Source: a virus. Taken from it: DNA of 43,213 bases. Below, piece by piece: positions 3,602 to 40,429 of this stretch (position 1 is the stretch's first letter; every line of letters begins with the position of its first letter). Made by a program: the position numbers and the translations under genes. Where the stretch lies: the IMG/VR virus record IMGVR_UViG_3300009678_001574. One strand, 5' to 3'. Below the pieces are notes generated by a model. It searched no databases and had not been told where the DNA came from. It worked only from the letters and a program-made list of their open reading frames with translations.

Positions 3602-4321
3602 ATGGTTTGTATTATAAGCGAAATAGGAATTAATCATAATGGCAGTATGGCTATGGCAAAGGAACTTATACGCCAATCTGCCATTGCCGGCGCCGATGTT
3701 GCAAAGTTTCAGGCCTATAGCGTTGATGCACTCTTTGGTGTAGGTGGTGAAGATCCCAATCCAGTTATTCATGCCGGTGTAAAGCCGTTCGAATTCAACA
3801 AAGAACAATTCGCAGAGCTTAAGGCCTGTTGTGATGAAGAGGGCATTGAGTTTATGTGTAGCGTATTCGATGAAGAAAGGCTACAATGGATGGAAGACCT
3901 CGGTGTTAAGCGTCATAAGATAGCCAGCCGTACCTCTAAACTTACGCGCGGGTTAGCTATTAAGATGGCAGAAACTGGTAAGGAATGCTTAATGTCTTTG
4001 GGCTTTGGCTCTAAACCACTTGAAACAAACTATCCCAATGTCAAGTATTTGTATTGTGTTTCCAAATATCCTACAATGTACTCTGAATTAGAACTGCCAA
4101 AAGACTTTACTACAAGTCAATTTTACGGATTTAGTGACCACAGTATGGGAATCGAAGCGAGTTTAGTTGCCATTGCCCGTGGCTCGCAAGTAATCGAAAA
4201 GCACTTTACCTTAAATAAAGGCCTACAAGGATTTGATCATATTTGTTCGATGGATCCAGAAGAGTTACGAGATTTGGTTAAGTATGCTCGTAGAATGGAA
4301 AAGGTATTGAAGTATTGCTAA
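3602..4321 (+). CDS. neuB: N-acetylneuraminate/nonulosonate synthase family (NeuB/PseI/LegI), TIM-barrel domain only
   Basis: IISEIGINHNGS, GADVAKFQ, KIAS, CVSKYP, GFSDHS, IEKHFTL; AAGGAG SD. At 239 aa it lacks the usual C-terminal AFP-like/SAF domain. Confidence 0.92.
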   Translation: MVCIISEIGINHNGSMAMAKELIRQSAIAGADVAKFQAYSVDALFGVGGEDPNPVIHAGVKPFEFNKEQFAELKACCDEEGIEFMCSVFDEERLQWMEDLGVKRHKIASRTSKLTRGLAIKMAETGKECLMSLGFGSKPLETNYPNVKYLYCVSKYPTMYSELELPKDFTTSQFYGFSDHSMGIEASLVAIARGSQVIEKHFTLNKGLQGFDHICSMDPEELRDLVKYARRMEKVLKYC

Positions 4322-4530
4322 TGAAATATTTATTCTTGTTATTATTAGTCTCTTGTGCCGGATCACTTATGGTTACAAGCCATCCAGAAAAAACTGCATG
4401 TGGCGCCGCCTTGGGTGTTAGAATTGAGGCTTATTTTGCAAAATGTGATTACGTTACAATTACCGAAATAAAAAAGCAGGATGATGGCACCTACGTAGGC
4501 AAAGGACAATGCCATAAAAAGGGAAACTAA
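4321..4530 (+). CDS. Small predicted lipoprotein
   Basis: MKYLFLLLLVS-C signal peptide with lipobox-like Cys. ATG 4321 overlaps the neuB stop. Confidence 0.6.
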   Translation: MKYLFLLLLVSCAGSLMVTSHPEKTACGAALGVRIEAYFAKCDYVTITEIKKQDDGTYVGKGQCHKKGN

Positions 4531-6611: not shown

Positions 6612-7481
6612 ATGACTGATACACTTCTTGTAATAGGTGCACAAAAAAGTGGAACATCCACTATGGTTGGTATTCTTAATTGCCACCCAGAAATATTTGT
6701 TGCACACGAATGGTTTCTTGATTCGGTTTGTACTAAGTATGGTTTAGATTTTTTTAGACATTATCGTGTAGATGAAAGAGAAAGGCTAAAAAAGAAGAAA
6801 CCAATTGCAAGTTCGTTCCAAAATTTTATTAGAGTATTATTGAAAAATGGATACAATTATAAATATGCTGGCGACAAATGGCCCAGAATAGGTTCATATA
6901 AAGTTATAGATAAGCGTATCGTGGAAATGAAAGATATCTATTCTATATTTATGATACGAGATTTGCGCACTTGGCTGCAACATAAAATGGTTTTAAACAT
7001 ATATAAGTGTACGGATGATATAACAGATTTGGCCATTAGATATGTGTATTACTTTGTAAAGAGTTTTTTGCTACCAAAGTGCTTACGTATAAGTATGGAA
7101 GGTATGATACAATATCCTAATATTACAGTAAAGCAAGTGGCAGATTTTCTGAAAGTCGAAGATATATATATGCAAGGGTGGTGGGATAAAGTAGGAAAGC
7201 AGGAAGATAATAATAAAAAGTTGCATAAGTGGTGGGAAAGACATACCTCGGCTGTCATAGAACCAAAGCATTTGGATATTGAAGTAGATATTAAAGAGCA
7301 TTCTTTTTGGAGCGATATATTGCCTGTCTTTGATAAATATTACAATAATTTAAATAGTGTATTTGAGGATAATGCTATTATCGATGACATAAACTATCTT
7401 ATTTCTTTATCAAAAAAATGGAATAAGGTTTCTGCAAATGAATTATACAATACTGTATCCAAATTAACAATTAGACAATAG
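6612..7481 (+). CDS. Sulfotransferase family protein
   Basis: 5'-PSB loop IGAQKSGTS, LNCHPEI, GDKWP, and FMIRD resembling the 3'-PB motif. Confidence 0.75.
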   Translation: MTDTLLVIGAQKSGTSTMVGILNCHPEIFVAHEWFLDSVCTKYGLDFFRHYRVDERERLKKKKPIASSFQNFIRVLLKNGYNYKYAGDKWPRIGSYKVIDKRIVEMKDIYSIFMIRDLRTWLQHKMVLNIYKCTDDITDLAIRYVYYFVKSFLLPKCLRISMEGMIQYPNITVKQVADFLKVEDIYMQGWWDKVGKQEDNNKKLHKWWERHTSAVIEPKHLDIEVDIKEHSFWSDILPVFDKYYNNLNSVFEDNAIIDDINYLISLSKKWNKVSANELYNTVSKLTIRQ

Positions 7482-7490
7482 GAGTTTAAC

Positions 7491-7847
7491 ATGTTATTCG
7501 CAATAATTGCTGGATTAGTACTATTAGCTACCATAATAGGTTTAGATATCCATTTTGCTATGGATGGAATTAAGGGCAATACTTGGAGCGAAATGATACG
7601 CAAGTTGGGTTTCGTATTAACCTTTATTCCCTGGGCCTGGGGTGGTCTTGGTGGGCACTTCTTTCATCCTAATTGGAAACAGATAATCCAGTCGCCGGGA
7701 AATATAGCTATGATGGTTTGGTTAAGTGTAGTGGTTACTATGATAGGTGGCGCTGTTATGAAATCTGGATGGTCGTACTCGCATTGGGTACCATTTATAA
7801 CTTTCTTTATTGCAGCGGTAGTCATAGGTAAGTTGTGGCCGGTATAA
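7491..7847 (+). CDS. Small multi-pass membrane protein
   Basis: About four hydrophobic segments; AGGAG SD. Confidence 0.7.
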   Translation: MLFAIIAGLVLLATIIGLDIHFAMDGIKGNTWSEMIRKLGFVLTFIPWAWGGLGGHFFHPNWKQIIQSPGNIAMMVWLSVVVTMIGGAVMKSGWSYSHWVPFITFFIAAVVIGKLWPV

Positions 7848-13374: not shown

Positions 13375-14007
13375 ATGCTAAACAAATTTAATCTCAGTCT
13401 CGACGATTTCAGCCCACATCCTAGGGCGGGGCTCGATTTCGAGTCTATAAAGTGGTGCGATAGGTTAATTGAAATTTATCCTTCCATCAAGATTAATTTA
13501 TTTGTACCATCCGCATATTGTCGTTTGGGTGAGCAGCCATATTATTTGAGTTTAAATAAAGAATGGGTAGAAAGAGTAAAGGCTTTGCCAGTAAACTACC
13601 GTATTAATTTTCATGGACATAATCATCGACGAGTGGATGGCAAAAACCCTAATTCCAATAATGATGAGTTCCAATATCTAAATGAAAATGGTGCAGAGTT
13701 ACTATTAGGCAAGATAGAGGCAGAGTTTAAAAAAGCAAATCTTTCGTATCATAAGACATTTCGTCCGCCTGGGTGGAAGATTAGCAAGGCTGCTATAAAG
13801 GTTATGACTTCAAAGGGTTATAGGATTGCTGGTAGACAAGAAGTTAATTGGGATTTATTAACTGAACCTCCAAAAGAGGGTAATGTAATAGCATATGGCC
13901 ATACTAGTAATTGGACAACTAACTTTTTGAACGAAGAACGATACAATACGATAATGAATTTTTTAAAAGACAAACAATTTGAGTTTGTATTTATAGAGGA
14001 TATGTAA
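13375..14007 (+). CDS. Polysaccharide deacetylase (CE4/NodB-like, DUF2334-type)
   Basis: LSLDDF, FHGHNH, FRPPGW, C-terminal GH. Confidence 0.8.
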   Translation: MLNKFNLSLDDFSPHPRAGLDFESIKWCDRLIEIYPSIKINLFVPSAYCRLGEQPYYLSLNKEWVERVKALPVNYRINFHGHNHRRVDGKNPNSNNDEFQYLNENGAELLLGKIEAEFKKANLSYHKTFRPPGWKISKAAIKVMTSKGYRIAGRQEVNWDLLTEPPKEGNVIAYGHTSNWTTNFLNEERYNTIMNFLKDKQFEFVFIEDM

Positions 14008-14390
14008 TGTTTGAAACACTTTTAGAAGAAGAAAAGAAAGAAGAAACATCAGACGATATATTTTGGAAGGCTATGAGTCTTGATGAGTTTATGCAATTGG
14101 GTTTGTTACAAGAAATAAATAGACGCTTTTTACATCCTATGGGCTTGGCGCTTTCTATGAGCGTCAATGAAGAAAGTGGCAAGGTAGAGGGCTTCGGGCC
14201 TGTCTGGGATATGCGACACGACACAGAAGGGATGCGCTTTACCGACAGCGTAATTTTATCAGACGAAGCCAGAGCAAAAATAAAACGAGTAGATGAGTTA
14301 TTAGAGTCCAAGAAAAAAGCACGGGAGGCTACTCTTGGTTATCATATCCAACCAGCAACATATGTAGTGCCTCCAAAGAAGGTGAAATAA
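14007..14390 (+). CDS. Hypothetical protein (127 aa)
   Basis: TAATG-coupled ORF with GAGG SD; core segment GLLQEINRRFLHPMGLAL. Confidence 0.65.
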   Translation: MFETLLEEEKKEETSDDIFWKAMSLDEFMQLGLLQEINRRFLHPMGLALSMSVNEESGKVEGFGPVWDMRHDTEGMRFTDSVILSDEARAKIKRVDELLESKKKAREATLGYHIQPATYVVPPKKVK

Positions 14391-15034
14391 TGTCATCAAT
14401 GGAAAGTAGAATAAATAAGTTGAGAGAGGCTAGTGGTAATGTAGCATTTAACGATGCTCTTACTGGCTTCTTGTATGAATTAATGCGCGACCATATGCCC
14501 GCTGGAAAGGTAGAAGAAATGGTTCATCGCGCAGCACATAATCCCGATGCTCTTTTTACCAATGGCTGGTTGGCTCAATACGCTAATAATCTTGCAGAAG
14601 AATTACGAAACGCACAAGTCAAACAATTAGCTGAAGCTCTTGAAAATGCATTAGCCTCCAATCAGGCCGAAAAGAAAGAGCCATCAGATAAGCGTCCGTC
14701 GTTCAAAATACAATCTCCGATAAAGAAACTCAAAGAAGATATACAAAAAGAAGAACAAGAAGACGAGGCCGAAGAAACAAATGATTATGGCTTGTCTTCA
14801 ATAGATCACTTGGAACGCACTGGGCAATTAGATAAGGCGCAGGCTGACAAAATTAGAAAAGAGATAGAAGAGGTAAGAAGGCAAAATCAAGAAGAAGCGC
14901 AAGGAATAGTTCATACAAGTGGTGGAGAAGCACCAACTGAACCTCCTGTTGTAACAACCAATGAAAGCGATATGATAACTTTCACAGTTGAAGATACTGG
15001 CCCAAATATGACTCTTGTGGAAGAAGAGGTTTAA
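14390..15034 (+). CDS. Hypothetical protein with acidic coiled-coil C-terminal half
   Basis: 214-aa coupled ORF; Glu-rich. Confidence 0.65.
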   Translation: MSSMESRINKLREASGNVAFNDALTGFLYELMRDHMPAGKVEEMVHRAAHNPDALFTNGWLAQYANNLAEELRNAQVKQLAEALENALASNQAEKKEPSDKRPSFKIQSPIKKLKEDIQKEEQEDEAEETNDYGLSSIDHLERTGQLDKAQADKIRKEIEEVRRQNQEEAQGIVHTSGGEAPTEPPVVTTNESDMITFTVEDTGPNMTLVEEEV

Positions 15035-21640: not shown

Positions 21641-22356
21641 AACGCTATATATTATTGGGCGGCAGCGGCAGGCTAGGTACCGAATTACAAAAGCATTTAG
21701 ATTGTTGGGCGCCAGATAGTGACACTTTTAATATCACCGACTGTTATGATGATTGGATTGGAATGGATCCACGTAATTATGATGGTGTAATTCTTAGCGC
21801 AGCCTATACAAATGTTTCCGGATGTGAAACTCATCGCAAAGATGCTATAGAGGCAAATGTTATAGGCCCAAAGAATGTTGCTAAATTGTATGATGGGCAT
21901 TATCCAGAAATGAGAATAGTGTATATATCTACTGATTACGTATATGCAGGAAAGACAGGCAATTATAAAGAAACTGATAAGCCAGAGCCTTTTAACTTTT
22001 ATGGTTTTACTAAATTGGCAGGAGAATCATACATGTCTCCTACTAAAGACTTGGTAGTAAGAACAAGTTTTAAACCATTAGGTGATTGGCCGTTCCCATC
22101 AGCATTCACAGACTTGTATACTTCTGCTGATTACGTAGATGTAATAGCAAAAGATATCGCGTTTGTGATAGAAAGTGGAATTACTGGTGTGATTAATGTA
22201 GGCACTGAAAGAAAATCTATTTATGATTTAGCTGTCCAGCGTACACCGAGCGTTGGGAAGATGTCTAAAAGAGAAATCACGAGAGTAAATTTACCAGAAG
22301 ATATTTCTATGGATATAACAAAACTAATCGGATTAAAAAATGGAGAAATCAAATGA
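21637..22356 (+). CDS. rmlD: dTDP-4-dehydrorhamnose reductase-like
   Basis: GGSGRLG, AAYTNV, ISTDYVY.G, YGFTKLAGE; ATGA overlap with rmlB. Confidence 0.88.
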   Translation: MKRYILLGGSGRLGTELQKHLDCWAPDSDTFNITDCYDDWIGMDPRNYDGVILSAAYTNVSGCETHRKDAIEANVIGPKNVAKLYDGHYPEMRIVYISTDYVYAGKTGNYKETDKPEPFNFYGFTKLAGESYMSPTKDLVVRTSFKPLGDWPFPSAFTDLYTSADYVDVIAKDIAFVIESGITGVINVGTERKSIYDLAVQRTPSVGKMSKREITRVNLPEDISMDITKLIGLKNGEIK

Positions 22357-23777
22357 CAGAAGAGAATGAGAATCGAGTCGTTGTTTCTGAAACCGAAGAC
22401 AATGTTCGCAGGGTTAGAAATACGGTCGAAGTTAAACAAGAAAATGCAGAATTAGAGCAAGAGCTTCAGGCCAAACCACCTGTTAAAAAGGCTTCTGTTC
22501 AAGACATACTAAAAGAAAAAGAAGAGCTTAAGAAAAAGAAAAAAGCGGAGGAAGACATGACAGTTATGGTTGTAGAACAACAAGATAGAAGTGTAAACAT
22601 TGGAGTTGTCGGCGTAGGCCAATGTGGTTCTAAGTTGGCCGAAGAGTTTTATGGCTTAGGATATCCTGCTGTGGCTATCAATACCGCTATGCAGGATTTA
22701 AAGCACATTGCTATCCCAGAAGGCAGCAAGTTATTTTTGGATTACGCATTGGGTGGTGCAGCGAAAGACCTCGAAACAGGTAATGCCGCAGCTGAAGAAT
22801 ACGCAGAAGCAATTAGTGATCACGTACAAACTCATTTAGGTGAGTGTGACGTATTGATGCTTACTACGTCAGGCGGTGGTGGTACAGGTTCAGGCTCAGC
22901 AGAGACGATGGTGAAGTTGTTAGCCCAGTTAGGCAAGCCACTTTCGGTTATATTCGTATTGCCTTTGTCCAGCGAAGATGCATTATCCAAGCACAATGCC
23001 ATAGTAACTTTGTCTAAATTGGCAAAGATGGCCAAGGACGATGTAATCAACTCATTGGCCGTTGTAGATAACGCTAAGATTGAATTGATGTTCCCAAGTC
23101 GCAGTATGGCGGATTTCTGGAAGTTAGCTAATAACGCAATTGTAGAACCCCTACATTTGTTTAATAAGTTATCAGCTAATCCATCACCCTATACTTCTCT
23201 TGACCCAATGGATTTCTCAAGACTATTTATCGGTACAGGCGATTGCGCTTTGTACGGTGTGGTTGAAGTTGAGAACTATTTGGAAGATGAAGCTATAGCA
23301 GAAGCAATGCTAACCAGCGTAGAAAATGGTTTATTGGCAAGTGACTTCGACCTTGGACAAACTCGTTCAGCCGGTATCATTATCACTGGCACCAAGTCTG
23401 TCCTAGAGAAAGTTCCAGCAACTAATATCGAATACGGATTTGCTATGGTAAGCAAAATATGCAATGAGGGTACGAGAGTATTTCGAGGTGTGTATGAAGT
23501 TCCTGGCAAAGAAAACGTATTGCGTGTATATAGCTTCTTCAGTGGTTTAGGTTTGCCAGAAGAGCGCGTAAAAGAACTCAAGGCAGAAGCAGAGCGTCAT
23601 ATGGAAGTTCTGAAGAACAAGGAAGAAAGCAGAGCAACCACTATGACCATTGACATTGGTAAGACACAAACAGTCAGTGCCGCGGATGCTCTTCACAAGA
23701 AAATTACTCAAAAACACTCAGCAATGGGTAAGCTAACCAATAATGCTAAGAGAGTAATTGATAAGCGCAGAAAATAA
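22353..23777 (+). CDS. Tubulin/FtsZ-superfamily GTPase (PhuZ/TubZ/CetZ-like) with charged N- and C-terminal extensions
   Basis: GVGQCGSKL (T1), AINT, GGAAKD (T3), GGGGTGSG signature (T4), VDN, LDPMD (T7). Confidence 0.93.
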   Translation: MTEENENRVVVSETEDNVRRVRNTVEVKQENAELEQELQAKPPVKKASVQDILKEKEELKKKKKAEEDMTVMVVEQQDRSVNIGVVGVGQCGSKLAEEFYGLGYPAVAINTAMQDLKHIAIPEGSKLFLDYALGGAAKDLETGNAAAEEYAEAISDHVQTHLGECDVLMLTTSGGGGTGSGSAETMVKLLAQLGKPLSVIFVLPLSSEDALSKHNAIVTLSKLAKMAKDDVINSLAVVDNAKIELMFPSRSMADFWKLANNAIVEPLHLFNKLSANPSPYTSLDPMDFSRLFIGTGDCALYGVVEVENYLEDEAIAEAMLTSVENGLLASDFDLGQTRSAGIIITGTKSVLEKVPATNIEYGFAMVSKICNEGTRVFRGVYEVPGKENVLRVYSFFSGLGLPEERVKELKAEAERHMEVLKNKEESRATTMTIDIGKTQTVSAADALHKKITQKHSAMGKLTNNAKRVIDKRRK

Positions 23778-30179: not shown

Positions 30180-32153
30180 ATGAGCAAGATTATGGTAATC
30201 AATGGAGGAATTGAGATGGCTAACGAAGAAGGACAACATGATATTTTTGCTGATATAGCAGAATTCACAAAAAACACCAATGTAGAAACTTGGCGTGGAA
30301 CCTTTAGGGATTTTATACCGTTGGTACAAGCAAATCCCAAACTGGCGCAGCTTTCACATGCGCGCATTTTGGATATGATTGAGAGCGCGGGAACAGAATA
30401 CGATGAGGCAGATAAGAACAAACAACTACCAACATATAAGTTCTTTGCGAACGATTTGTTTGGTGTTCAAGAACCAATTAGAAAAGTAGTTAAATATCTT
30501 AAAGCAGCTGCATCTGGCTCTCAGGTCGGTCGCAGAATTCTCTTGCTATACGGGCCCACTAGTTCGGGTAAGAGTCAATTGGCCACACTTTTGAAGAATG
30601 GCCTTGAGCAATGGACACGCACCGAAGATGGTGCTGTGTATGCCATAGAAGGCTGTCCAATCCACGAAAATCCTCTTAACCTCGTTCCACATGGCCTTCG
30701 TAAGAAGTTCAGAGAAGACTATGGTATTAAGATAGATCCACTTGCTAGACTTTGCCCTGTTTGCCAATTTAAATTGGAAAATGAAATGGGCGCTGATTGG
30801 CTATCCGTGCCGGTAAAGCGTATATTGTTTTCAGAAGCAGCGCGCACAGGTATTGGAACCTTCCTACCAGGCGATACTAAAAATCAATCTATTACCGAAT
30901 TAGTTGGTTCTGTCGACTTTAGTAAGTTGAGTGAGTTCGGCGTTGAATCCGATCCACGCGCTTACAAGTTTGACGGTGAATTAAACGTAGCTAATCGTGG
31001 TGTAATGGAAATGATTGAAATGCTTAAGGTTGATCCAAAGTTCTTGTATGTTCTATTAACCTTAGCACAAGAAAAGACTATTAAGACTGAACGCTTTCCG
31101 CTGATATACGCGGACGAATTCATCCTAGCACACACCAATGAAACTGAATACACTCGTTTCATTGGCGACAACAAGATGGAAGCCTTACACGATCGTATTA
31201 TCGTAGTTAAGTTTGGCTATAACGTAATCTTGAATGAAGAGGTTAAGATATACGAGAAGTTGGTTAATGAGGCTGATTTCGGTAGCGTTCATATAGCCCC
31301 GCTAACTTTAAAGGTAGCATCGATGTTTGCCGTTCTAACTCGTTTAGAAGAAGCAAAAGACCAAAATCTTTCTTTGTTGAAGAAGATGCAATTGTATAAC
31401 GGTGAGGACGTCGAAGGCTTTACTCAAGAAGACATCAAGAATATTAAATCTGATGTTGCCCGCGAAGGAATGATTGGCATCAGCCCACGTTATATCTTTA
31501 ACTGTGTGGCCGAATGCTTTACCAAACATGACTTAAATTGTATTACTCCGATAGACGTATTACGCGCTATCAAAGAAAACTTTGAAAGCAGTGCTAAATT
31601 CTCCAAAGATGACATCGATCACTTTGATGAATTGCTAACCGTAGTAGTTGAAGAATATACTAAGATGGCAAAGAATGAAGTACAGAAAGCTTTCTTCGTA
31701 AATTTCTCTTCTGAAATTAAGAATCTATTGAATAACTACATTGATAACGTCGGTGCCTATTTGGATGACCGCGAAGTTGTAAATGAATTCGGCGAACACC
31801 ACGAACCAGATGAGCATTTGATGCGCTCTATTGAAGAAAAGGTTGGTGTTAGCGAAGCAGCCAAGGATAGCTTCCGTCAAGAAGTGTATCGTAAAGTAAT
31901 TAAGTCTAAAGCCGAGAACGGTGACTTTGATTACAAGGCACATGCCAAATTGAGAGAGGCTCTAGAACGTCAGTTGTTTGATGAGCGCAGTGATGTTATT
32001 AGACTCACCGTAAGCTCAAGAAACCCAGACCCAGAAGCACTTAAGAAGCTTAATGGCGTAATTGCGACGCTTGTAGATCAGTATGGCTACAACGTCGAGT
32101 CTGCTAACCAACTATTACGTTATGTTAATAGTTTAATGTCTAGAACCACTTAA
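30180..32153 (+). CDS. prkA: PrkA/YeaG-family AAA+ ATPase (annotated serine protein kinase)
   Basis: LLLYGPTSSGKS, CPIHENPL, ESDPRAYKFDGELNVANRG, EMLK, AHTNE, EALHDR, GISPRY. Alternative start at 30216. Confidence 0.95.
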   Translation: MSKIMVINGGIEMANEEGQHDIFADIAEFTKNTNVETWRGTFRDFIPLVQANPKLAQLSHARILDMIESAGTEYDEADKNKQLPTYKFFANDLFGVQEPIRKVVKYLKAAASGSQVGRRILLLYGPTSSGKSQLATLLKNGLEQWTRTEDGAVYAIEGCPIHENPLNLVPHGLRKKFREDYGIKIDPLARLCPVCQFKLENEMGADWLSVPVKRILFSEAARTGIGTFLPGDTKNQSITELVGSVDFSKLSEFGVESDPRAYKFDGELNVANRGVMEMIEMLKVDPKFLYVLLTLAQEKTIKTERFPLIYADEFILAHTNETEYTRFIGDNKMEALHDRIIVVKFGYNVILNEEVKIYEKLVNEADFGSVHIAPLTLKVASMFAVLTRLEEAKDQNLSLLKKMQLYNGEDVEGFTQEDIKNIKSDVAREGMIGISPRYIFNCVAECFTKHDLNCITPIDVLRAIKENFESSAKFSKDDIDHFDELLTVVVEEYTKMAKNEVQKAFFVNFSSEIKNLLNNYIDNVGAYLDDREVVNEFGEHHEPDEHLMRSIEEKVGVSEAAKDSFRQEVYRKVIKSKAENGDFDYKAHAKLREALERQLFDERSDVIRLTVSSRNPDPEALKKLNGVIATLVDQYGYNVESANQLLRYVNSLMSRTT

Positions 32154-32476
32154 TGAATGATGCCAGTATAGATATTTTTAGGGAAGAAATGCCCAACCTT
32201 AATTTCTTTAAGGTCGGGATAGGCCGGAGAGAGCCTAGATTATTCGCTAGTCTAGAAGATTCATTAGGCATAAAGACCGTAACATCATTTGGTTTTGATT
32301 TAGTAGAATCAATAGACGTTCTGGATAGAATAGAAGATGAGACTTTAATAATACTTCTTTCTATGGCCCATGGTGTAATGTTTGCTGAATCAAGAATGTG
32401 TTATTTTCTTCCAAAACAATTTGAACAACTCAAAGAAGACTATTTGGTTATGAAACTTTCTGGAGTCAAACAATGA
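32153..32476 (+). CDS. Hypothetical protein (107 aa)
   Basis: TAATG- and ATGA-coupled between prkA and yeaH. Confidence 0.6.
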   Translation: MNDASIDIFREEMPNLNFFKVGIGRREPRLFASLEDSLGIKTVTSFGFDLVESIDVLDRIEDETLIILLSMAHGVMFAESRMCYFLPKQFEQLKEDYLVMKLSGVKQ

Positions 32477-33648
32477 CTGATTCGCTATTAGATATTTGGT
32501 CTATGCGCAAGCGTGGTAAAAGAGACCATGCTCGGCATTCCCAGCGCGTCAAAAAAGCTATCAGAGAAAATCTAAAAGACCTGGTTTCTGATTCTAGTAT
32601 TATTTCTTCCGACGGTAAAAAGAAAGTTAAGATACCTCTTAAGTATCTAGATAACTATCGTTTTAAGCACCAAGAAGATAAAAATAATGAAGGTGTTGGG
32701 CAGGGCGATAAGAAGCATAAACCCGGTGATCCTATTGCGCACGATGGAACCGGACAAAAGGGTTCTGGCAAAGGCCAACCTGACAATCAAGCGGGCGACG
32801 AAGTCTATGAAGAAGAGATTGAAATAGCTGACATCGTTCAAATGATGTTAGAAGACTTGGGTCTCCCGTGGCTAGAATCTAAAGATAGCTCTGTTGAAGT
32901 AGAAACAGAGAATATTAAATTTACAGATATTTCAGAAGTAGGTCCGCTTTCAAACGTGGATAAACGCAGAACAATCTTTGAGAACCTAAAAAGAAACGCA
33001 AAGAACGGCGATGCAACTATAAAGAATATCCGTCCAGAAGATTTGCGATATAAAGTATGGGATGTTGAAAAAGAATATCATTCCAATGCGGCAGTATATT
33101 TTCTAATGGATCGTTCAGGTAGTATGGATGATGAGAAAAAGTATATTGCTAAATCATTCTTTTTTTGGTTGGCTCACTTTTGTAAAACCAAATACAGCCA
33201 AGTAGAATTAATATTTATAGCACATGATACTACAGCTAGAATAGTTCCAGAAGAAAACTTTTTTAAGATTTCTAACAGCGGTGGAACGATGTGTAGCTCA
33301 GCCTTCAAGCTTACACACGAACACATAATAGCTAATCATCCACCAGAATTGTGGAATAACTATGTATTCTCTTTCAGTGACGGCGATAACTGGCCCACTG
33401 ATAACGAAGAATGTATTAAAATAGTTAACAAGCTATTAGAAGTATGCACAGCCGTTGGTTATGGAGAAATTAACACGGAAAGTTTTGTTGGAGCAATGCC
33501 TGCCGGTGCTAATCCAGCTTGGTCTACCTTACATCAAGAATTTTCTAAGAGCGTAACTCACAAAAGATTTATGACTGCTGCGATTTCCAAGAAAGAGGAT
33601 ATCTACTCCTGCCTAAAACAGTTCTTGGGGATCAAAAATGATGGATGA
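32473..33648 (+). CDS. yeaH: YeaH/YhbH (DUF444) vWA-domain protein
   Basis: D..RH..RVK.AI, Gly-rich linker, EDLGLPWL, EDLRY, MDRSGSM, GGTMCSSA, SDGDNW. Confidence 0.93.
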   Translation: MTDSLLDIWSMRKRGKRDHARHSQRVKKAIRENLKDLVSDSSIISSDGKKKVKIPLKYLDNYRFKHQEDKNNEGVGQGDKKHKPGDPIAHDGTGQKGSGKGQPDNQAGDEVYEEEIEIADIVQMMLEDLGLPWLESKDSSVEVETENIKFTDISEVGPLSNVDKRRTIFENLKRNAKNGDATIKNIRPEDLRYKVWDVEKEYHSNAAVYFLMDRSGSMDDEKKYIAKSFFFWLAHFCKTKYSQVELIFIAHDTTARIVPEENFFKISNSGGTMCSSAFKLTHEHIIANHPPELWNNYVFSFSDGDNWPTDNEECIKIVNKLLEVCTAVGYGEINTESFVGAMPAGANPAWSTLHQEFSKSVTHKRFMTAAISKKEDIYSCLKQFLGIKNDG

Positions 33649-34027: not shown

Positions 34028-34489
34028 ATGAAAGAAACAGACCTAGAGTTGTTCAGGTGGAATTGGTATAGATTACGAGTAAGGGACATAAAAGCAAATC
34101 GCAACGCCGCACTTGGACTACGAACTTTTTGGTCTGAGTACGGCGTTTTTGTTTCTACGCTCCCCAGACAATCTGGCAAATCTGAAATGATAATAAAAAT
34201 GGCCGAAGCATTAGAAAATGATGGAGAGAATTTTCTAATCATAGTATTGAATGAAAATATGAAAAGACATCTCTCTGGAATGGCACCTAATATATATCCT
34301 GGCAAAATAAGAACCAATCCGGGAGCGATGATGTCTTTCTATCGTCTTGGTGCAGACAGCAGACCGGAAGACACACATATACTAATTGACGAGTATGAAT
34401 ACTTACATAATCAAGCTATGGGATGGATAATGAATGAAAATTGGAAATCCATATCGTTGGTTGGAAGTTATAAATTGAGGGCAACATGA
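34028..34489 (+). CDS. Minimal single-domain P-loop NTPase-like protein
   Basis: Walker A-like LPRQSGKS, Walker B-like ILIDE, motif-III-like LVGS; 153 aa; GGAGG upstream. Confidence 0.65.
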   Translation: MKETDLELFRWNWYRLRVRDIKANRNAALGLRTFWSEYGVFVSTLPRQSGKSEMIIKMAEALENDGENFLIIVLNENMKRHLSGMAPNIYPGKIRTNPGAMMSFYRLGADSRPEDTHILIDEYEYLHNQAMGWIMNENWKSISLVGSYKLRAT

Positions 34490-35907
34490 GCAAAGAAGAC
34501 GTAATCCAAAGAATTAAGGACATAGAACAACTGGCCAAGGACTCCGGTTTAGATTTCTTTCCAACCGTATTTGAGTTTGTTAATCGAGACATTATGCTCG
34601 AAGCCTGTTCCTATGGTTTGCCGGTCCGTGCTCGCCACTGGTCTTATGGGCGTTCCTACCAGCATCAGAAAGTATATGGCGAGATGGGCTTCTCAAAGGT
34701 TTATGAGATTGTCTTTAATAACAATCCATCGTATGCTTTTCTTTTAGATACCAACCAAGACATCATAAACATAATGGTCGGAGCACATGTCTTCGGTCAC
34801 GTTCATTTCTTTAAGCACAATGCGATGTTCCAAGGCTCAGACCGCAATATGATTCATCGTGCAGCAGAACGAGCTGCAAGAGTAGATACTTATATCGCTC
34901 AATATGGCCTCGAAAAAGTTGAACATTTGATGGATATTGCATTCTCAATTGATAATCATATTGATTGGCATAAAGGACTTTTTAGACGCAAGTATCCTGG
35001 TAAAGAAATAGTTGAAGAGCGTAACCGTAAAGATGAGTTCTCAGATCTATTAAATATTGGTGATAATAGTAGAAGAAGTTTAACGCTCAGAACTACTGGC
35101 GGCAAGCTCCCACCACATCCTGAAAAAGATTTGTTGTGGTTTTTAGTTAACTATGCACCAATGGAAGAGTGGGAAAAGGACGTTCTAGCTATTATTCGTG
35201 AAGAGTCCTATTACTTTTATCCAATAGTAATGACCAAAATTATGAACGAAGGCTTTGCTTCATTTTGGCACGCTGAACTTATGTATAAGTACAACGCAGT
35301 TAAGGAAGATGAGTATATAGAATTTTGTAAGTGTCATTCTGGAGTCGTAAATCCGGGCAATAGATTTAATATCAATCCCTATTATTTGGGCTTTAAAGTA
35401 TTTACTGATATACGCGAGAAATGGGACGAACTATACAAGCAAGGCAAATCAGAAATTAATGGAATACAAAAGGTTCTCAAGGTCGCCGCGGAAGAAGATG
35501 ACGCCTCCTTTTTAAGGAACTACCTAACGAAGGAGTTGGCTAGTGAGATTGGACTTTTCAATTACGGCTACAAGTTAAAACGTGAGCCGGGACTTGATGA
35601 AGATCAGTTATCTGAAGAGCACGGTATTATAGAACTAAAGGATAGAGACCTAAATAAAGTTATAGAAAACATAATTCGTCCAACAATAAATTATGGCGCA
35701 CCTCTCATTACAGTTGATGAAATAGATGGCGATACACTGATAATAAAACACTCAGATATATTTGGGCCACTAGATGAGAAGTATACCGAAAAGACTATGG
35801 AATACCTATATGAATTGTGGGGCGGACCTGTTGAACTGAAAACCTATGACGACGACAAAAAAGAAATAGTATATTGTTTTGATGAAAGTGGATTCGATTT
35901 GTTATAG
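34486..35907 (+). CDS. spoVR: SpoVR/YcgB family protein
   Basis: GLDFFP, YGLP.R..HWSYG, YEIV.NNNP, AHVFGHVHFFKHN, YFYP…TKIMNEGFASFWH, NPY.LG. Confidence 0.95.
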   Translation: MSKEDVIQRIKDIEQLAKDSGLDFFPTVFEFVNRDIMLEACSYGLPVRARHWSYGRSYQHQKVYGEMGFSKVYEIVFNNNPSYAFLLDTNQDIINIMVGAHVFGHVHFFKHNAMFQGSDRNMIHRAAERAARVDTYIAQYGLEKVEHLMDIAFSIDNHIDWHKGLFRRKYPGKEIVEERNRKDEFSDLLNIGDNSRRSLTLRTTGGKLPPHPEKDLLWFLVNYAPMEEWEKDVLAIIREESYYFYPIVMTKIMNEGFASFWHAELMYKYNAVKEDEYIEFCKCHSGVVNPGNRFNINPYYLGFKVFTDIREKWDELYKQGKSEINGIQKVLKVAAEEDDASFLRNYLTKELASEIGLFNYGYKLKREPGLDEDQLSEEHGIIELKDRDLNKVIENIIRPTINYGAPLITVDEIDGDTLIIKHSDIFGPLDEKYTEKTMEYLYELWGGPVELKTYDDDKKEIVYCFDESGFDLL

Positions 35908-35922
35908 GAGGAGCATTCCCAC

Positions 35923-36087
35923 ATGGGCATTTGGAAAACTACCAAGACCCCCAATAGTAAGCAAAAAGCAGAAATTGACATTAAAGCCCTCAAATTACGT
36001 TTGCAGTCGCTAGTCAAAGAGGGTAATATAGAGATAGTACAGCTTGCTATTGAGTCATTGCTTGACGAGCTAGAAGAACAAAAGTAA
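35923..36087 (+). CDS. Small hypothetical protein (54 aa), not in the ORF track
   Basis: MGIWKTTKTPNSKQKAEIDIKALKLRLQSLVKEGNIEIVQLAIESLLDELEEQK*; AGGAGGAG upstream; fills the gap. Confidence 0.65.
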   Translation: MGIWKTTKTPNSKQKAEIDIKALKLRLQSLVKEGNIEIVQLAIESLLDELEEQK

Positions 36088-36099
36088 AAAGGGGTAGAT

Positions 36100-36675
36100 A
36101 TGTATAAGATTGGTATTATTGGTCATAATCCTGAAGATTTTATTGACCAAGATAATGCTACTCGTTCTATTGATCGAGTCATTGAACTATTGTTTCACCA
36201 ATATGGTAGAATGAATCAATCGCTCGACAACGACGGTATATTCTATAATCATAATACTAGCCTCGTATTAAACATACTGGGCAATGTCGGCGCAGGTATA
36301 TGGGCAGGAAAAGCTTGTAAAAAGCACGGTGTTAAATATCACTTGTTCCTACCTTTCCCTCACGAAACAACTTCACAATTTTGGTATGAAAGCCAAAAGG
36401 CAGAATTGAACGACTTATTTCTGTCTTCCTATGAAACTTCCACCCAATCATTTGATCAAGATGAAGGGAGCGCCTTTGATAGTGCAAATGCGGCCTTAGT
36501 GGACAACTCTAATTTCGTTGTCGCATTTTGGGAACATAAGAGAATAGGAAAGACATTCGATGCAATTAAATACGCTTTAAGCACGAGCAAATTAGTTTTA
36601 GACGGCATGAATGATTTAAAACTAATTACAAATTCAGACTTACAAAAAAGGTTAGAACATGGAAGAGACAAATAA
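36100..36675 (+). CDS. SLOG-superfamily protein, YpsA/DUF1273-like
   Basis: IGIIGHNP (cf. TGHRP), GNVGAGIWAG (cf. GA.GVD.WA), LFLPF…W, N.ALVDNSNFVVAFW…GKT…IKYA. Confidence 0.75.
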   Translation: MYKIGIIGHNPEDFIDQDNATRSIDRVIELLFHQYGRMNQSLDNDGIFYNHNTSLVLNILGNVGAGIWAGKACKKHGVKYHLFLPFPHETTSQFWYESQKAELNDLFLSSYETSTQSFDQDEGSAFDSANAALVDNSNFVVAFWEHKRIGKTFDAIKYALSTSKLVLDGMNDLKLITNSDLQKRLEHGRDK

Positions 36676-37300
36676 TATTTCGCACACAGTACCGCACGCA
36701 ACACCATTCGTAGATTTTAGTATGCAATTCAGCCTCGCCAAGAATAACGAGCGAGTAGAGCGCTGTATATTTGAATCGCTTCAAGAATTGGCAAGAGAAG
36801 TTGCTTTGGGCAAACAAAAATCATTAGGCTCTATAGTTGTGCTAGGTGATTTTGAAAAATTTGGCCCTAGAATAGATGGCATGGTTCAAATGAAGCCAAA
36901 GCAAAACCCTGTTGAAAGTTTAAGAATATTTGATTCGACACATGGTGCAGCTTACATTAAAGAATTTTCTATTTCGCCTTTCGATGGTGCGATGGTAGTA
37001 GATAAGACTGGCCAAATTATAGGCGCAGGTGTGTACTTGGTTGTAGAAGATCCAACACTAGATACGCCAGAAGATTGTGGTACGAGACACAAAGCCGCTG
37101 CCAGTTTCTCTAGAAGGGACGATGTAATTTCCGTATTGACGTTGAGTGAAGAAACCAACACAGTACGAATTTGGCAACATGGCAAGGTCAAAGAAGTGTA
37201 TAGAACAAATGAGGTGGTTGCGGAAGAGAGAGAAGAAAAGGCAACCAAGAAAAAGAAAGCCAGCGGTAAGATGCAGACAGTTGAGGAGAGTAAGGAATGA
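36659..37300 (+). CDS. Stand-alone diadenylate cyclase (DAC/DisA_N) domain protein
   Basis: ELARE…LGSIVVLGD, FDGAMVV (DGA), GTRHKAA (RHR-like), LSEETNTVRIW..G. Confidence 0.88.
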   Translation: MEETNNISHTVPHATPFVDFSMQFSLAKNNERVERCIFESLQELAREVALGKQKSLGSIVVLGDFEKFGPRIDGMVQMKPKQNPVESLRIFDSTHGAAYIKEFSISPFDGAMVVDKTGQIIGAGVYLVVEDPTLDTPEDCGTRHKAAASFSRRDDVISVLTLSEETNTVRIWQHGKVKEVYRTNEVVAEEREEKATKKKKASGKMQTVEESKE

Positions 37301-37941
37301 GCCAGATAATATCAAATTCAGAAGTAATGAAGTTGTTCAGAGATGCAGATGAAATCAAAGCTGACGCACAACTTACAGAGGCTCAAAAGAAAGACAAAGT
37401 TGAAAACATTCATAACAAGATAATCAAAGAGTTATCTTTTTTAGTTTACAACGGAGCTAAGTCTTATAGAAAATTTCCCAACTACGAAGACCTCGTACAA
37501 GAAGGTTTCATAGGCTTGTTAAAAGCTGTAAGAAAATTCGAACATGCACGATTTCCAAACTTTTTCGTGTATGCTGAACAATGGATAAGACACCGCATCA
37601 AGAACTCTGCGAGTCGCTTCGATGTAGTGTATAATCCTAATAAGCAGAGAGTAGTGTATGCCGATGACCTTGGAGACAGTGTTGAAGAGGAAACGGAATT
37701 TACACCAGAAGATGTGTATTTTGAAGTAGAGAAGAAGGAAAGCATAAAGAAAGTTTTAGACGAATTCCCAGAACGCGAGCGAGAAATTGTGAAAAGAATA
37801 TTTGGATTAGACGATCATTCTCCACAGACCTTACGTGAAATAGGGCCCGATTTTGATATCACCTATGAACGCATTCGTCAAATTAAGAACAATGTAATTT
37901 CTAAACTAAGAAAAAATCAGAGACTTAATGATTTATGCTAA
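37297..37941 (+). CDS. RNA polymerase sigma70-family factor (regions 2 and 4)
   Basis: EDLVQEGFIGLLKAVRKF, F..YA..WIR, and region 4 REREIV…FGL…TLREIG..FDITYERIRQI…KLR. Confidence 0.93.
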   Translation: MSQIISNSEVMKLFRDADEIKADAQLTEAQKKDKVENIHNKIIKELSFLVYNGAKSYRKFPNYEDLVQEGFIGLLKAVRKFEHARFPNFFVYAEQWIRHRIKNSASRFDVVYNPNKQRVVYADDLGDSVEEETEFTPEDVYFEVEKKESIKKVLDEFPEREREIVKRIFGLDDHSPQTLREIGPDFDITYERIRQIKNNVISKLRKNQRLNDLC

Positions 37942-38002
37942 AATAGCCGCTATCAGTAGATAGTATGGCACAGGTGTATTTTTTCTAGGAGATTTTGGTA
38001 AA

Positions 38003-40429
38003 ATGTACAAACGAGATGAGGTTTTAGAAGCATCCCTACAATATTTTAATGGTGACGAGTTAGCAGCAAATGTATTCGCAACTAAATATGCTTTGAAAGA
38101 CAAAGAGGGTAATTATTTAGAAAAGACCCCAACAGATATGCATAACCGCTTGGCGAAAGAATTCGCTAGAATGGAGAGCAAATTCGGTGGCAAGAGAGCC
38201 TTAACCGAAGAACAGATTTTTGAACAGATGGATCATTTCCGTTATATAGTTCCGCAAGGTTCTCCTATGATGGGCATTGGCAATAACCATATTAATGTAT
38301 CGTTATCCAATTGTGTAGTCGTTGCCTCGCCGCAAGATACAATTTCTTCTATTATCGATTCAGGAAAAGAATTAGCCAATCTATTTAAACGTAGATGTGG
38401 CGTAGGTCTAGATATCTCTGACCTTCGACCAGAAGGTACACCCGTCAGCAACTCGGCCGGCACTACAACTGGTGCCTGGTCGTTTGCCGATTTCTATTCT
38501 TATGTTTGTAGAATGATTGGTCAGAACAATCGACGTGGCGCTTTGATGATATCTATGGACGTAAGACATCCTGATATATTTAAATTCGTTACTATGAAGA
38601 ATGACTTGAAGAAAGTCACTGGTGCTAATGTTTCTATTAGAATCACTGACGACTTTATGAGCGCAGTAGAGGGCGATGAAGAATTTACCCTGCGCTTTCC
38701 TATTGATTCTGCCAAGCCAAAGTTTACAACCACTATCAAGGCCAAAGAATTATGGAATGCTATTGTTACTTCAGCTACTAATTTTGCTGAACCTGGTCTA
38801 CTGATGTGGGACAATATCCTTAGATTTATGCCAGCAGAATCATATGCTGACGTTGGCTTCAAAACCATTAGTACTAATCCTTGCTCTGAAATTCCCCTTT
38901 CAGCATACGATAGTTGTCGCTTGATTTCCGTATGCCTGAAGCACTTTGTTAAAAATAAGTTCACAAGGAAAGCCTATTTTGATTTTGAGCAACTAGCAAA
39001 AGTTATCTCTATGGCACAACGCCTATCAGATGACTTAGTAGAGCTAGAAGTTGAAAAGCTGGAAAATATCATGGCTGTATCGGATACGCCAGATGAAAAG
39101 GCAATGTGGAATAAGTTATTAACTGCGTGTAGAAATGGTCGTCGCACTGGTCTAGGAACTCATGGCCTTGCTGACGCCCTAGCTTGCTTATGCTTACGCT
39201 ACGATTCAGATGAAGCTCTCGCTATGGTAGATAAAATATATGAGGCTCTAAAGATTTCTTCATACACTGAGAGTGTCGAGTTAGCAAAAGAGCGTGGAGC
39301 ATTTCCTGTTTGGGATTGGAATAAAGAAAAGAGTAACGAGTTTATACAATCGCTTCCAGAATCTCTTCAGGCACTTATAGCTAAGTATGGCCGTCGCAAT
39401 ATTGCCAATCTTACTAACGCTCCAACCGGAAGTGTTTCAATTGAATCACAATCTAGCTCCGGCGGCGAATCGGTATTCAGAAATTCATATGTGAGACGCA
39501 AGAAACGCAATCACAATGAGGCCTCGCTACCAACAGATTTCGTGGATGATATTGGGGATCGTTGGCAGGAGTTTAGAGTATTTCATCACAACGTAAAAGA
39601 ATATTTGGATATGCACAACTTAAGTATTGATGCTGAATTGCCAGATTACTTCGTAGAAAGTGATAACATCGACTGGATACGCAGGGTAGAAGTTCAGGCA
39701 GCTATGCAGAAGCATATTGATCATGCTATATCTAGCACCATTAATTTGCCAAAAGGTACTAACCCAGAAATTGTTGGCAATATATATTTTGAGGGTTGGA
39801 AGCGTGGGCTAAAGGGTATAACTGTATATGTAGATGGCAGTCGTTCCGGCGTACTGATTTCTGATAAGAAGAAAGAAGAGGTTAAATTCGCTCACCATGA
39901 CGCACCAAAACGCCCACAAGAAATGCCCTGCAATATACATAATGTTACTATTAAGGGCGAGAAATGGACTATCTTGGTTGGACTAATGGATGGAAAGCCA
40001 TATGAAGTATTCGGTGGTCTTTCTAATCTTATAGAAATACCCAAGCAATATACATCTGGCGTAATTTCCAAGCACCCATCAAGTACTAAAACTCAAAGCC
40101 GATACGATTTATTCTTTGGTGATGACGGTGCTGTTAAGGACATAACCAATGTATTTGATAATATTGCCAATCAGGTTCATACACGAATGATTTCCTTGGC
40201 TTTACGACATGGGGCTAAACCATCCTTTTTAGTTGAGCAATTATTAAAGGATCCAGATAACGACCTAACAAGTTTCTCAAAGGTTTTGTCTCGTGTATTG
40301 AAAAAGTACATTGAAGATGGTACCAAAGTTACCTCTGATAAGAGTTGCCCCACTTGCAGTGCTGATGCCCTTGTATATCAAGAAGGCTGCGTAACTTGTG
40401 GTGTTTGCGGCTACTCAAAGTGCAGTTAA
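38003..40429 (+). CDS. nrdJ: Class II (adenosylcobalamin-dependent) ribonucleotide reductase
   Basis: LSNC, GVGLDISDLRP, RRGALM, TNPCSEI, RRTGLG, APTGS, ISSTINLP, KGITVYVDGSR, C-terminal CPTC…EGCVTC..CGYSKC. No beta-subunit gene adjacent. Confidence 0.92.
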   Translation: MYKRDEVLEASLQYFNGDELAANVFATKYALKDKEGNYLEKTPTDMHNRLAKEFARMESKFGGKRALTEEQIFEQMDHFRYIVPQGSPMMGIGNNHINVSLSNCVVVASPQDTISSIIDSGKELANLFKRRCGVGLDISDLRPEGTPVSNSAGTTTGAWSFADFYSYVCRMIGQNNRRGALMISMDVRHPDIFKFVTMKNDLKKVTGANVSIRITDDFMSAVEGDEEFTLRFPIDSAKPKFTTTIKAKELWNAIVTSATNFAEPGLLMWDNILRFMPAESYADVGFKTISTNPCSEIPLSAYDSCRLISVCLKHFVKNKFTRKAYFDFEQLAKVISMAQRLSDDLVELEVEKLENIMAVSDTPDEKAMWNKLLTACRNGRRTGLGTHGLADALACLCLRYDSDEALAMVDKIYEALKISSYTESVELAKERGAFPVWDWNKEKSNEFIQSLPESLQALIAKYGRRNIANLTNAPTGSVSIESQSSSGGESVFRNSYVRRKKRNHNEASLPTDFVDDIGDRWQEFRVFHHNVKEYLDMHNLSIDAELPDYFVESDNIDWIRRVEVQAAMQKHIDHAISSTINLPKGTNPEIVGNIYFEGWKRGLKGITVYVDGSRSGVLISDKKKEEVKFAHHDAPKRPQEMPCNIHNVTIKGEKWTILVGLMDGKPYEVFGGLSNLIEIPKQYTSGVISKHPSSTKTQSRYDLFFGDDGAVKDITNVFDNIANQVHTRMISLALRHGAKPSFLVEQLLKDPDNDLTSFSKVLSRVLKKYIEDGTKVTSDKSCPTCSADALVYQEGCVTCGVCGYSKCS

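Follow-up and report, generated by a model that had tools for sequence, protein, structure and literature searches.

We found a clade of virus-borne diadenylate cyclase (DAC) domain proteins, represented in the 43,213-nucleotide viral stretch IMGVR_UViG_3300009678_001574 (IMG/VR; the whole of this stretch is called the window below) by a 213-residue protein whose gene overlaps that of a YpsA-like SLOG protein. The DAC family is a variant, carried by phages and lacking a sensor, of enzymes already known. Its window member is best described as an accessory of a huge-phage gene string that joins a PrkA-YeaH-SpoVR module to a sigma factor, and in which the SLOG neighbour is frequent and dispensable. 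The SLOG and DAC genes are carried on a 468,446-bp metagenomic contig, the phage genome being at least 468 kb. Cyclic di-AMP (c-di-AMP), the predicted product of the DAC protein, is a central and often essential second messenger in bacteria and archaea.

The two genes and their junction are as follows.

36100-36675, + strand: YpsA-like SLOG protein, 191 aa (PF06908 below cut-off; profile match to 2NX2; AlphaFold2 (AF2) model; GxD/E signature reading G64-A-G66).
36659-37300, + strand: minimal DAC-domain protein, 213 aa (PF02457; AF2 model; Foldseek/VIA-align), predicted to be a diadenylate cyclase and belonging to a DacZ-related clade carried by phages.
36659-36675, + strand: 17-nt overlap of the SLOG 3' end with the DAC 5' end, from the coordinates of the open reading frames (ORFs); DAC lies in the +1 frame relative to SLOG.

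Both genes are real and under strong purifying selection: between the window and its 95%-identical relative L054, dN/dS was 0.040 for DAC (dS 0.58) and 0.041 for SLOG (dS 0.54). The 17-nt overlap is nothing special for this genome, in which 27 of the 53 adjacent gene pairs of the window overlap, 7 of them by at least 17 nt.

The DAC protein was characterized by its domain, its catalytic residues and its predicted fold. Pfam PF02457 (DisA_N) matched residues 53-176 with 56.2 bits (cut-off 27; E = 3e-15) and was returned alone by the Pfam scan, which gave no regulatory or other domain; structural alignments spanned residues ~24-185, with tails of ~25 and 28 aa on either side. In the alignment to solved CdaA, F108-D-G-A111 (FDGA) fell on the HDGA motif, G141-T-R-H-K145 on GTRHR, S163-E-E-T-N167 on SEETG and Y126-L127 on the adenine-stacking Tyr-Leu pair. 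Across a 69-sequence alignment D109, G110, A111, T142, R143, H144, S163, E164 and E165 were invariant, and K145 was at least 90% conserved. The lid segment, which runs from DGA to GTRH, had the canonical length, with no extension of the kind found in PanS. Finally, the AF2 model (pLDDT 86) matched CdaS, CdaA, DisA and CdaM at Z 12-15, with a root-mean-square deviation of ~3 Å over ~135 residues, and the next unrelated chain scored Z 3 (Foldseek, VIA-align). Judged from its sequence, the DAC protein is very probably an active cyclase that produces c-di-AMP.

To place this protein among its relatives, we built a maximum-likelihood tree of 122 DAC domains (with SH-aLRT support), which split into long cellular proteins and a "short stand-alone" supergroup with a support of 100%. 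The short supergroup comprised clade A, with the window protein (support 97), clade B (99), clade C from further phage contigs, and short DACs from metagenome-assembled genomes (MAGs) of DPANN archaea; clades A and B were sister groups (support 85) with ~42% identity. The long group was DacZ-type, with DacZ_P+DAC, PK_C+DAC and PTS_EIIA_2+DacZ_P+DAC architectures. DacZ also headed the NCBIfam scores of the window protein (DacZ 45.6 bits, DisA 34, CdaA 30, CdaS 26, CdaM 24; all far below the equivalog cut-offs), and the closest ESM Atlas models were DacZ_P/DacZ_A-bearing or short archaeal DACs. The match to the DacZ model covered its catalytic part only, DAC residues 27-177 aligning with model positions 120-261, with no N-terminal domain. 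The window protein is a DacZ-branch catalytic domain, with its sensor domain either lost or never present.

The family is small and well defined, with ~30 clusters at 50% identity in 1.84 billion representatives, and is confined to huge phages. A phmmer search of these 50%-identity representatives gave 347 matches at E <= 1e-3, 31 at E <= 1e-10 and 6 at E <= 1e-30, and a word-indexed search returned 94 clusters of stand-alone DACs (136-222 aa) and 30 SLOG clusters. The window gene order recurs on contigs of 76 to 481 kb; we take the relatives to be huge phages because a 206-kb related contig is only ~25% complete by the CheckV estimate given in IMG/VR. Among 50,697 deposited phage records we found neither a nucleotide match to the window nor a DAC homologue, PHROGs gave no family for SLOG or DAC, and our literature search found no paper describing a phage-encoded DAC. 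The only two tblastn matches of DAC to "phage" records (MT835502, MT836418) were rejected, being a bacterial cdaA-cdaR-glmM operon on an "UNVERIFIED" contig: MT835502.1 23418-31855 (L055), "UNVERIFIED Bacteriophage sp." from human faeces, carries the full cdaA-cdaR(YbbR)-glmM operon and is most likely bacterial chromosome. We also disregarded three 249-aa proteins placed within clade B (L038/L042/L044), which had 35% column coverage and a very long branch. A further protein, P0138 (313 aa), has TPR repeats, and over its last 78 residues it shares 56% identity with the C-terminal half of the window DAC; either it is a fusion or it arose as an artefact of gene calling within clade B. The DPANN DACs, from Pacearchaeota/Woesearchaeota MAGs (L041, L043, L045, L046), are short stand-alone proteins of 167-175 aa with a conserved neighbour set, and share the short supergroup with the phage enzymes on a long branch.

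A preliminary description of this DNA had drawn attention to the 17-nt overlap of the two ORFs, to a DAC protein that keeps DGA and SEE and has RHK (D109-G110-A111, S163-E164-E165, R143-H144-K145), to short tails with no regulatory domain, and to a DacZ-like start, all of which our analysis bore out. The DAC and SLOG folds that it proposed were also returned by structure prediction, and the viral clade that it envisaged emerged as the phage-borne clades A, B and C. It had also read RHK as a departure from the canonical RHR motif, but this is probably no anomaly: the third residue is K in clade A (13/13), I in clade B (10/10), L or I in clade C, I in the DPANN DACs, and A, T, L or others in DacZ-type proteins. 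Since this position varies among the nearest relatives and only Arg-His is constant on the branch, RHK is not evidence of impairment. Moreover, its premise that cellular DACs carry regulatory domains is outdated, because the minimal DACs of the PanS type are constitutively active and the DPANN MAGs carry DACs of 167-175 aa.

We next consider the place of the DAC gene among its neighbours. The window is a dense series of + strand genes, in the order PrkA - x - DUF444 - x - x - SpoVR - p55 - SLOG - DAC - sigma70 - class II ribonucleotide reductase (RNR) - dUTPase - ... - PIN-PhoH. The genes that matter here are listed below.

30180-32153, + strand: PrkA (AAA_PrkA plus PrkA C-terminal domain), from domain matches and synteny in relatives.
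32473-33648, + strand: DUF444 / YeaH-YhbH homologue (PF04285, 320 bits), with synteny in relatives.
34486-35907, + strand: SpoVR (PF04293, 351 bits), the conserved upstream neighbour of the slot.
35923-36087, + strand: p55, a 54-aa helical protein from a cluster of 15 members, which accompanies the SLOG gene.
37297-37941, + strand: phage sigma-70 family factor (regions 2 and 4; Pfam Sigma70_r2 and Sigma70_r4), the conserved downstream neighbour of DAC.

Relatives were gathered by identity look-up and pattern scans, their ORFs were clustered, and counts were made over distinct contigs. The slot between spoVR and the sigma gene was found in four states.

p55, SLOG and DAC: 16 contigs (window, L001-L004, L008).
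p55 and DAC without SLOG: 1 contig (L011).
DAC alone, immediately after SpoVR: 8 contigs (clade B, largely marine/TARA).
p55 and SLOG without DAC: 3 contigs in two lineages (L047, L048/49).

We found that DAC is steadily accompanied by the PrkA-YeaH-SpoVR module and the sigma factor rather than by SLOG. SpoVR and the PrkA trio lay upstream of DAC in 20 of the 20 clade A and B contigs with enough flank, and the sigma factor lay downstream of DAC in all clade A and B loci but L010. The p55 gene preceded SLOG in clade A and in loci of the L047 and L048 types, and it was kept in L011 despite the missing SLOG; clade B lacks both p55 and SLOG, and L048/49 also lack the PrkA trio. The L011 DAC is 72% identical to that of the window, and because it nests beside the window DAC in the tree (support 98), we regard L011 as a secondary loss of SLOG. 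Thus, the SLOG-DAC adjacency is genuine and conserved within a clade, but nothing in the overlap or the distribution speaks for an obligate writer/reader unit, and SLOG is very probably not an obligate partner of DAC.

Several loci showed peculiarities of their own. At window 37420-38120, in the sigma-70 gene, nucleotide identity to L054 was 99-100%, compared with ~88-90% in the flanking SLOG, DAC and RNR genes, and dS was 0.06 in the sigma gene versus ~0.55 in the flanking genes; this resembles a recent recombination patch or sweep limited to the sigma gene. We rejected the idea that SLOG-DAC moves as a recombination cassette: relative to L054, it is the sigma gene that stands out by its near identity, and RNR has diverged as far as SLOG and DAC have. 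The top NCBIfam match of the sigma factor was MzaA, the sigma-70 of the MZA anti-phage system (116 bits, far under the cut-off and above the RpoD models). LAGLIDADG homing endonuclease inteins were found inside SpoVR in L001 (4760-7264; 834 aa) and inside the class II RNR in L048 (9724-13461) and L049 (1997-5734; 1245 aa). L048 also carries Cas12f1-like/TnpB (TNB domain) ORFs at 7166-7735 and 13572-14789, at the position that the PrkA-DUF444-SpoVR trio has in other relatives and again after RNR, which suggests that the region was remodelled by IS200/605-type elements. L047 (NCBI MFA5023363.1, a contig of 246,754 bp) was deposited as a "Patescibacteria group bacterium" MAG and is probably a misbinned phage, with the synteny of the huge phages (DnaB-PrkA-DUF444-SpoVR-p55-SLOG-sigma-RNR-PhoH). 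In the clade C locus L005, a YAcAr-family SLOG gene (4144-4497) lies ~3.5 kb upstream of DAC; just downstream are DUF2201 (VWA-like) and AAA_5 (MoxR-like) genes and ClpB, an AAA+/VWA pairing loosely analogous to PrkA/YeaH.

What might the phage gain from such an enzyme? We tentatively favour a takeover of host physiology linked to the PrkA-YeaH-SpoVR/sigma module, to which we give slightly less than an even chance; reprogramming of the host is the most likely of the readings because DAC is tied to this starvation/dormancy module and to a phage sigma factor across two diverged clades. SLOG and DAC are two separately translated, functional genes in a long same-strand string (PrkA - YeaH(DUF444) - SpoVR - p55 - SLOG - DAC - sigma70 - RNR). 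On this proposal, the DAC protein would form a head-to-head dimer, like other DAC domains, and condense two ATP into 3'3'-c-di-AMP; since the lid is canonical and has no PanS extension, we would expect this symmetric product. Because it has no sensor domain, DAC is probably active whenever it is expressed, and the phage would flood the infected cell with the second messenger. The c-di-AMP would then act through host receptors on potassium and osmolyte transport, the cell wall, and stringent or dormancy responses, with SLOG and p55 as frequent but dispensable co-residents of the slot. We found no c-di-AMP receptor or phosphodiesterase domain in the window or in three related partial phage records, and no DHHA1, CdAMP_rec or TrkA_C domain in the three related IMG/VR records, which are fragments. 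The failure to find a phage-borne receptor or phosphodiesterase weakly favours host targets.

Several points weigh against this proposal. The clade C phages hold DAC in an unrelated neighbourhood, adjoining RNase H, and contiguity alone is no proof that DAC functions with PrkA, YeaH and SpoVR, because nearly all genes are packed on one strand. The negative result for receptors covers the window and related records that are fragments of ~25% estimated completeness; c-di-AMP receptors in the host are an assumption. The cyclase activity itself is a prediction, and the third arginine of RHR is Lys in the window DAC, at a position that is variable among relatives.

We considered that the phage DAC might instead serve counter-defence, its c-di-AMP interfering with nucleotide-based immunity, which we judge to be unlikely but the strongest of the alternatives. 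The precedent comes from two August 2026 preprints on PanDA/Panoptoo, which showed that c-di-AMP serves as an immune "all is well" signal: PanS produces c-di-AMP or cyclic UMP-AMP (cUA) constitutively and so keeps the membrane effector PanE inactive, and sequestration of the signal by the phage sponge Acb4 triggers the system (PMC13640721; 10.64898/2026.08.10.743927). In one variant, c-di-AMP from the phage enzyme would keep PanE-type guard effectors, which respond to c-di-AMP or cUA, repressed while phage sponges soak up CBASS signals; in another, a decoy would saturate host receptors or sponges. SLOG would separately handle signals derived from NAD or ADP-ribose. Viral YpsA-like SLOGs are reported from 31% of jumbo phages and have been proposed to counter cyclic ADP-ribose-type signals (PMC9503650). 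In addition, the patchy presence of DAC and SLOG in one slot resembles that of accessory counter-defence genes. However, neither a sponge nor a PanDA context is known for the phage or its host, PADLOC gave no matches, and DAC keeps its place next to SpoVR and the sigma gene instead of sitting in a variable anti-defence island. Moreover, c-di-AMP made by DacZ can activate a TIR-SAVED effector, so that making it is also risky for the phage (10.1101/2025.06.19.660554). The specific form in which a constitutive synthase of a huge phage counters guard immunity, topping up c-di-AMP or cUA so that PanE stays off while the phage's own sponges disable CBASS-type signalling, is still less likely, and we think it improbable. 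If true, a counter-guard DAC would be the first DAC encoded by a virus and would add a third layer to the nucleotide arms race.

The remaining alternatives turn on the SLOG protein and on the catalytic site. The SLOG protein scored 25.8 bits against Pfam YpsA (PF06908), just below the gathering cut-off of 27.7, and precomputed PF06908 matches exist for five of its homologues; its family profile matched B. subtilis YpsA 2NX2 with E = 3e-4. The AF2 model (pLDDT 89) also had YpsA 2NX2 as its top PDB match (E = 1e-8, TM-score 0.66-0.70), followed by DprA, ShosA, MCP (Moco-carrier) and LOG proteins, and the nearest ESM Atlas clusters were viral YpsA/DUF1273 proteins. The preliminary description had chosen ThsA for comparison. 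This choice found little support: the match of the stand-alone window SLOG to the ThsA SLOG domain (7uxs) was weak (E = 3e-3, TM-score 0.44), and the protein groups with viral YpsA-like SLOGs rather than with the ThsA type. The GxD/E signature of B. subtilis YpsA (G53, E55), which is required for YpsA foci formation and division inhibition (PMC6459960), aligned with G64-A65-G66, and position 66 was Gly in 25 of 31 relatives and Asp or Glu in 5 of 31. Because Gly occupies the acidic position of the signature, the SLOG ligand, if any, may differ from that of YpsA. SLOG probably has its own ligand, a nucleotide or a compound of the ADP-ribose type, and is probably not an obligate reader or eraser for the cyclase.

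The preliminary description had raised the possibility that SLOG and DAC are a cyclic-dinucleotide writer with a reader or eraser. A true pair of this kind, in which SLOG either binds the DAC product or binds and gates DAC itself, appears to us improbable. There are models for gating, as CdaR and GlmM act on CdaA and RadA acts on DisA. The co-occurrence part of the proposal stood, in that SLOG and DAC are tightly adjacent in 16 contigs of one clade, where their junctions vary between a gap of 13 nt and an overlap of 29 nt; the strength of selection on the two genes is similar and the SLOG fold is a nucleotide-binding fold. An obligate pairing did not stand, because the slot shows every one of the four presence/absence combinations, with DAC lacking SLOG in clade B and in the 72%-identical L011, and SLOG lacking DAC in L047 and L048/49. 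Furthermore, overlapping genes are commonplace in this genome, the ligand signature of YpsA is changed, and no SLOG-DAC fusion was present among the best 147 all-length DAC relatives; we likewise found no longer SLOG-containing proteins, which is weak evidence.

Weakest of all is the idea that the DAC-fold protein does not work as a c-di-AMP cyclase in vivo (being a nucleotide binder, a pseudoenzyme or the source of another product, for instance cUA or a linear dinucleotide), for which RHK, the extra loop GMVQMKPKQNP conserved in the clade and the ability of DAC domains to make cUA (10.64898/2026.08.10.743927) might be cited, but which we consider very unlikely given that the catalytic positions are all invariant except for the variable third RHR residue, that the lid is canonical and not PanS-like, and that the clade loop is a Q..NP loop with 3 further residues, Q..NP being common to clades B and C and to DacZ-type enzymes.

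Elsewhere in the window, a large glycan-synthesis island occupies 138-22356, with GNAT, cytidylyltransferase, NeuB, several methyltransferases, two GT2, sulfotransferase, GT1, epimerases/dehydratases, UDP-glucose dehydrogenase and RmlA/B/D. Next to it come a TubZ-like tubulin (22353-23777) and then a UvsW helicase, a DnaC-like loader and DnaB. A scan for promoters and terminators gave no signal above the shuffled expectation.

If the proposed activity is true, a virus that makes c-di-AMP would represent a new way for phages to take over the osmotic, cell-wall and dormancy control of the host, or else to disarm guard-type immunity. The DAC family also offers a way into the PrkA-YeaH-SpoVR modules of large phages, which are unexplained.

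We compared these genes with the systems that they most resemble. Like the phage PrkA/SpoVR modules of Thermus phages phiYS40/TMA, Ralstonia phage RsoM2USA and the LR7565xx huge phages, the string is a case of PrkA-family genes in large phages (PMC8504454); tblastn detected neither DAC nor a window-type SLOG in those records. B. subtilis YpsA and the YpsA-like SLOGs of jumbo phages (PMC6459960, PMC9503650) are the best structural and profile match to the window SLOG and are likewise stand-alone SLOG proteins of ~180 aa, but the window protein reads G64-x-G66 for G53/E55, has a sub-threshold Pfam score and has no gpsB-type neighbourhood. CdaA, DisA, CdaS and CdaM share the fold and the catalytic residues of the window DAC at an identity of ~20%; in contrast to the first three, the window protein has no CdaA_N transmembrane domain, no DisA linker and HhH, and no CdaS N-terminal helices.

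PanS (PDB 37jy), a DAC of ~150 aa, is like the window protein a DAC domain alone without a regulator, and is the precedent for constitutive synthesis (PMC13640721; 10.64898/2026.08.10.743927). However, PanS is encoded by the host and reads DGF/GGR, with a lid extension that allows cUA synthesis (10.64898/2026.08.10.743927), whereas the window DAC is encoded by a phage, reads DGA/GTRH, has no lid extension and has no adjacent 2TM-beta PanE. No PanE-like gene was found in the 30-odd loci, the neighbours of the window DAC being SLOG and sigma70. The DAC family profile matched PanS 37jy_A with E = 0.12 (14.9 bits), compared to E = 6e-10 (42 bits) for DacA/CdaA. The window DAC is architecturally similar to PanS but is probably not a PanS relative. 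The DacZ/CdaZ-type enzymes (Haloferax DacZ; NF041371) are different in that the window protein is phage-encoded, carries no DacZ_P/PK_C sensor and falls short of the NF041371 equivalog cut-off (45.6 bits versus 430). Nevertheless, they have the Q..NP loop and the variable third RHR residue in common with it, and theirs is the nearest catalytic domain by sequence, by tree and by predicted structure.

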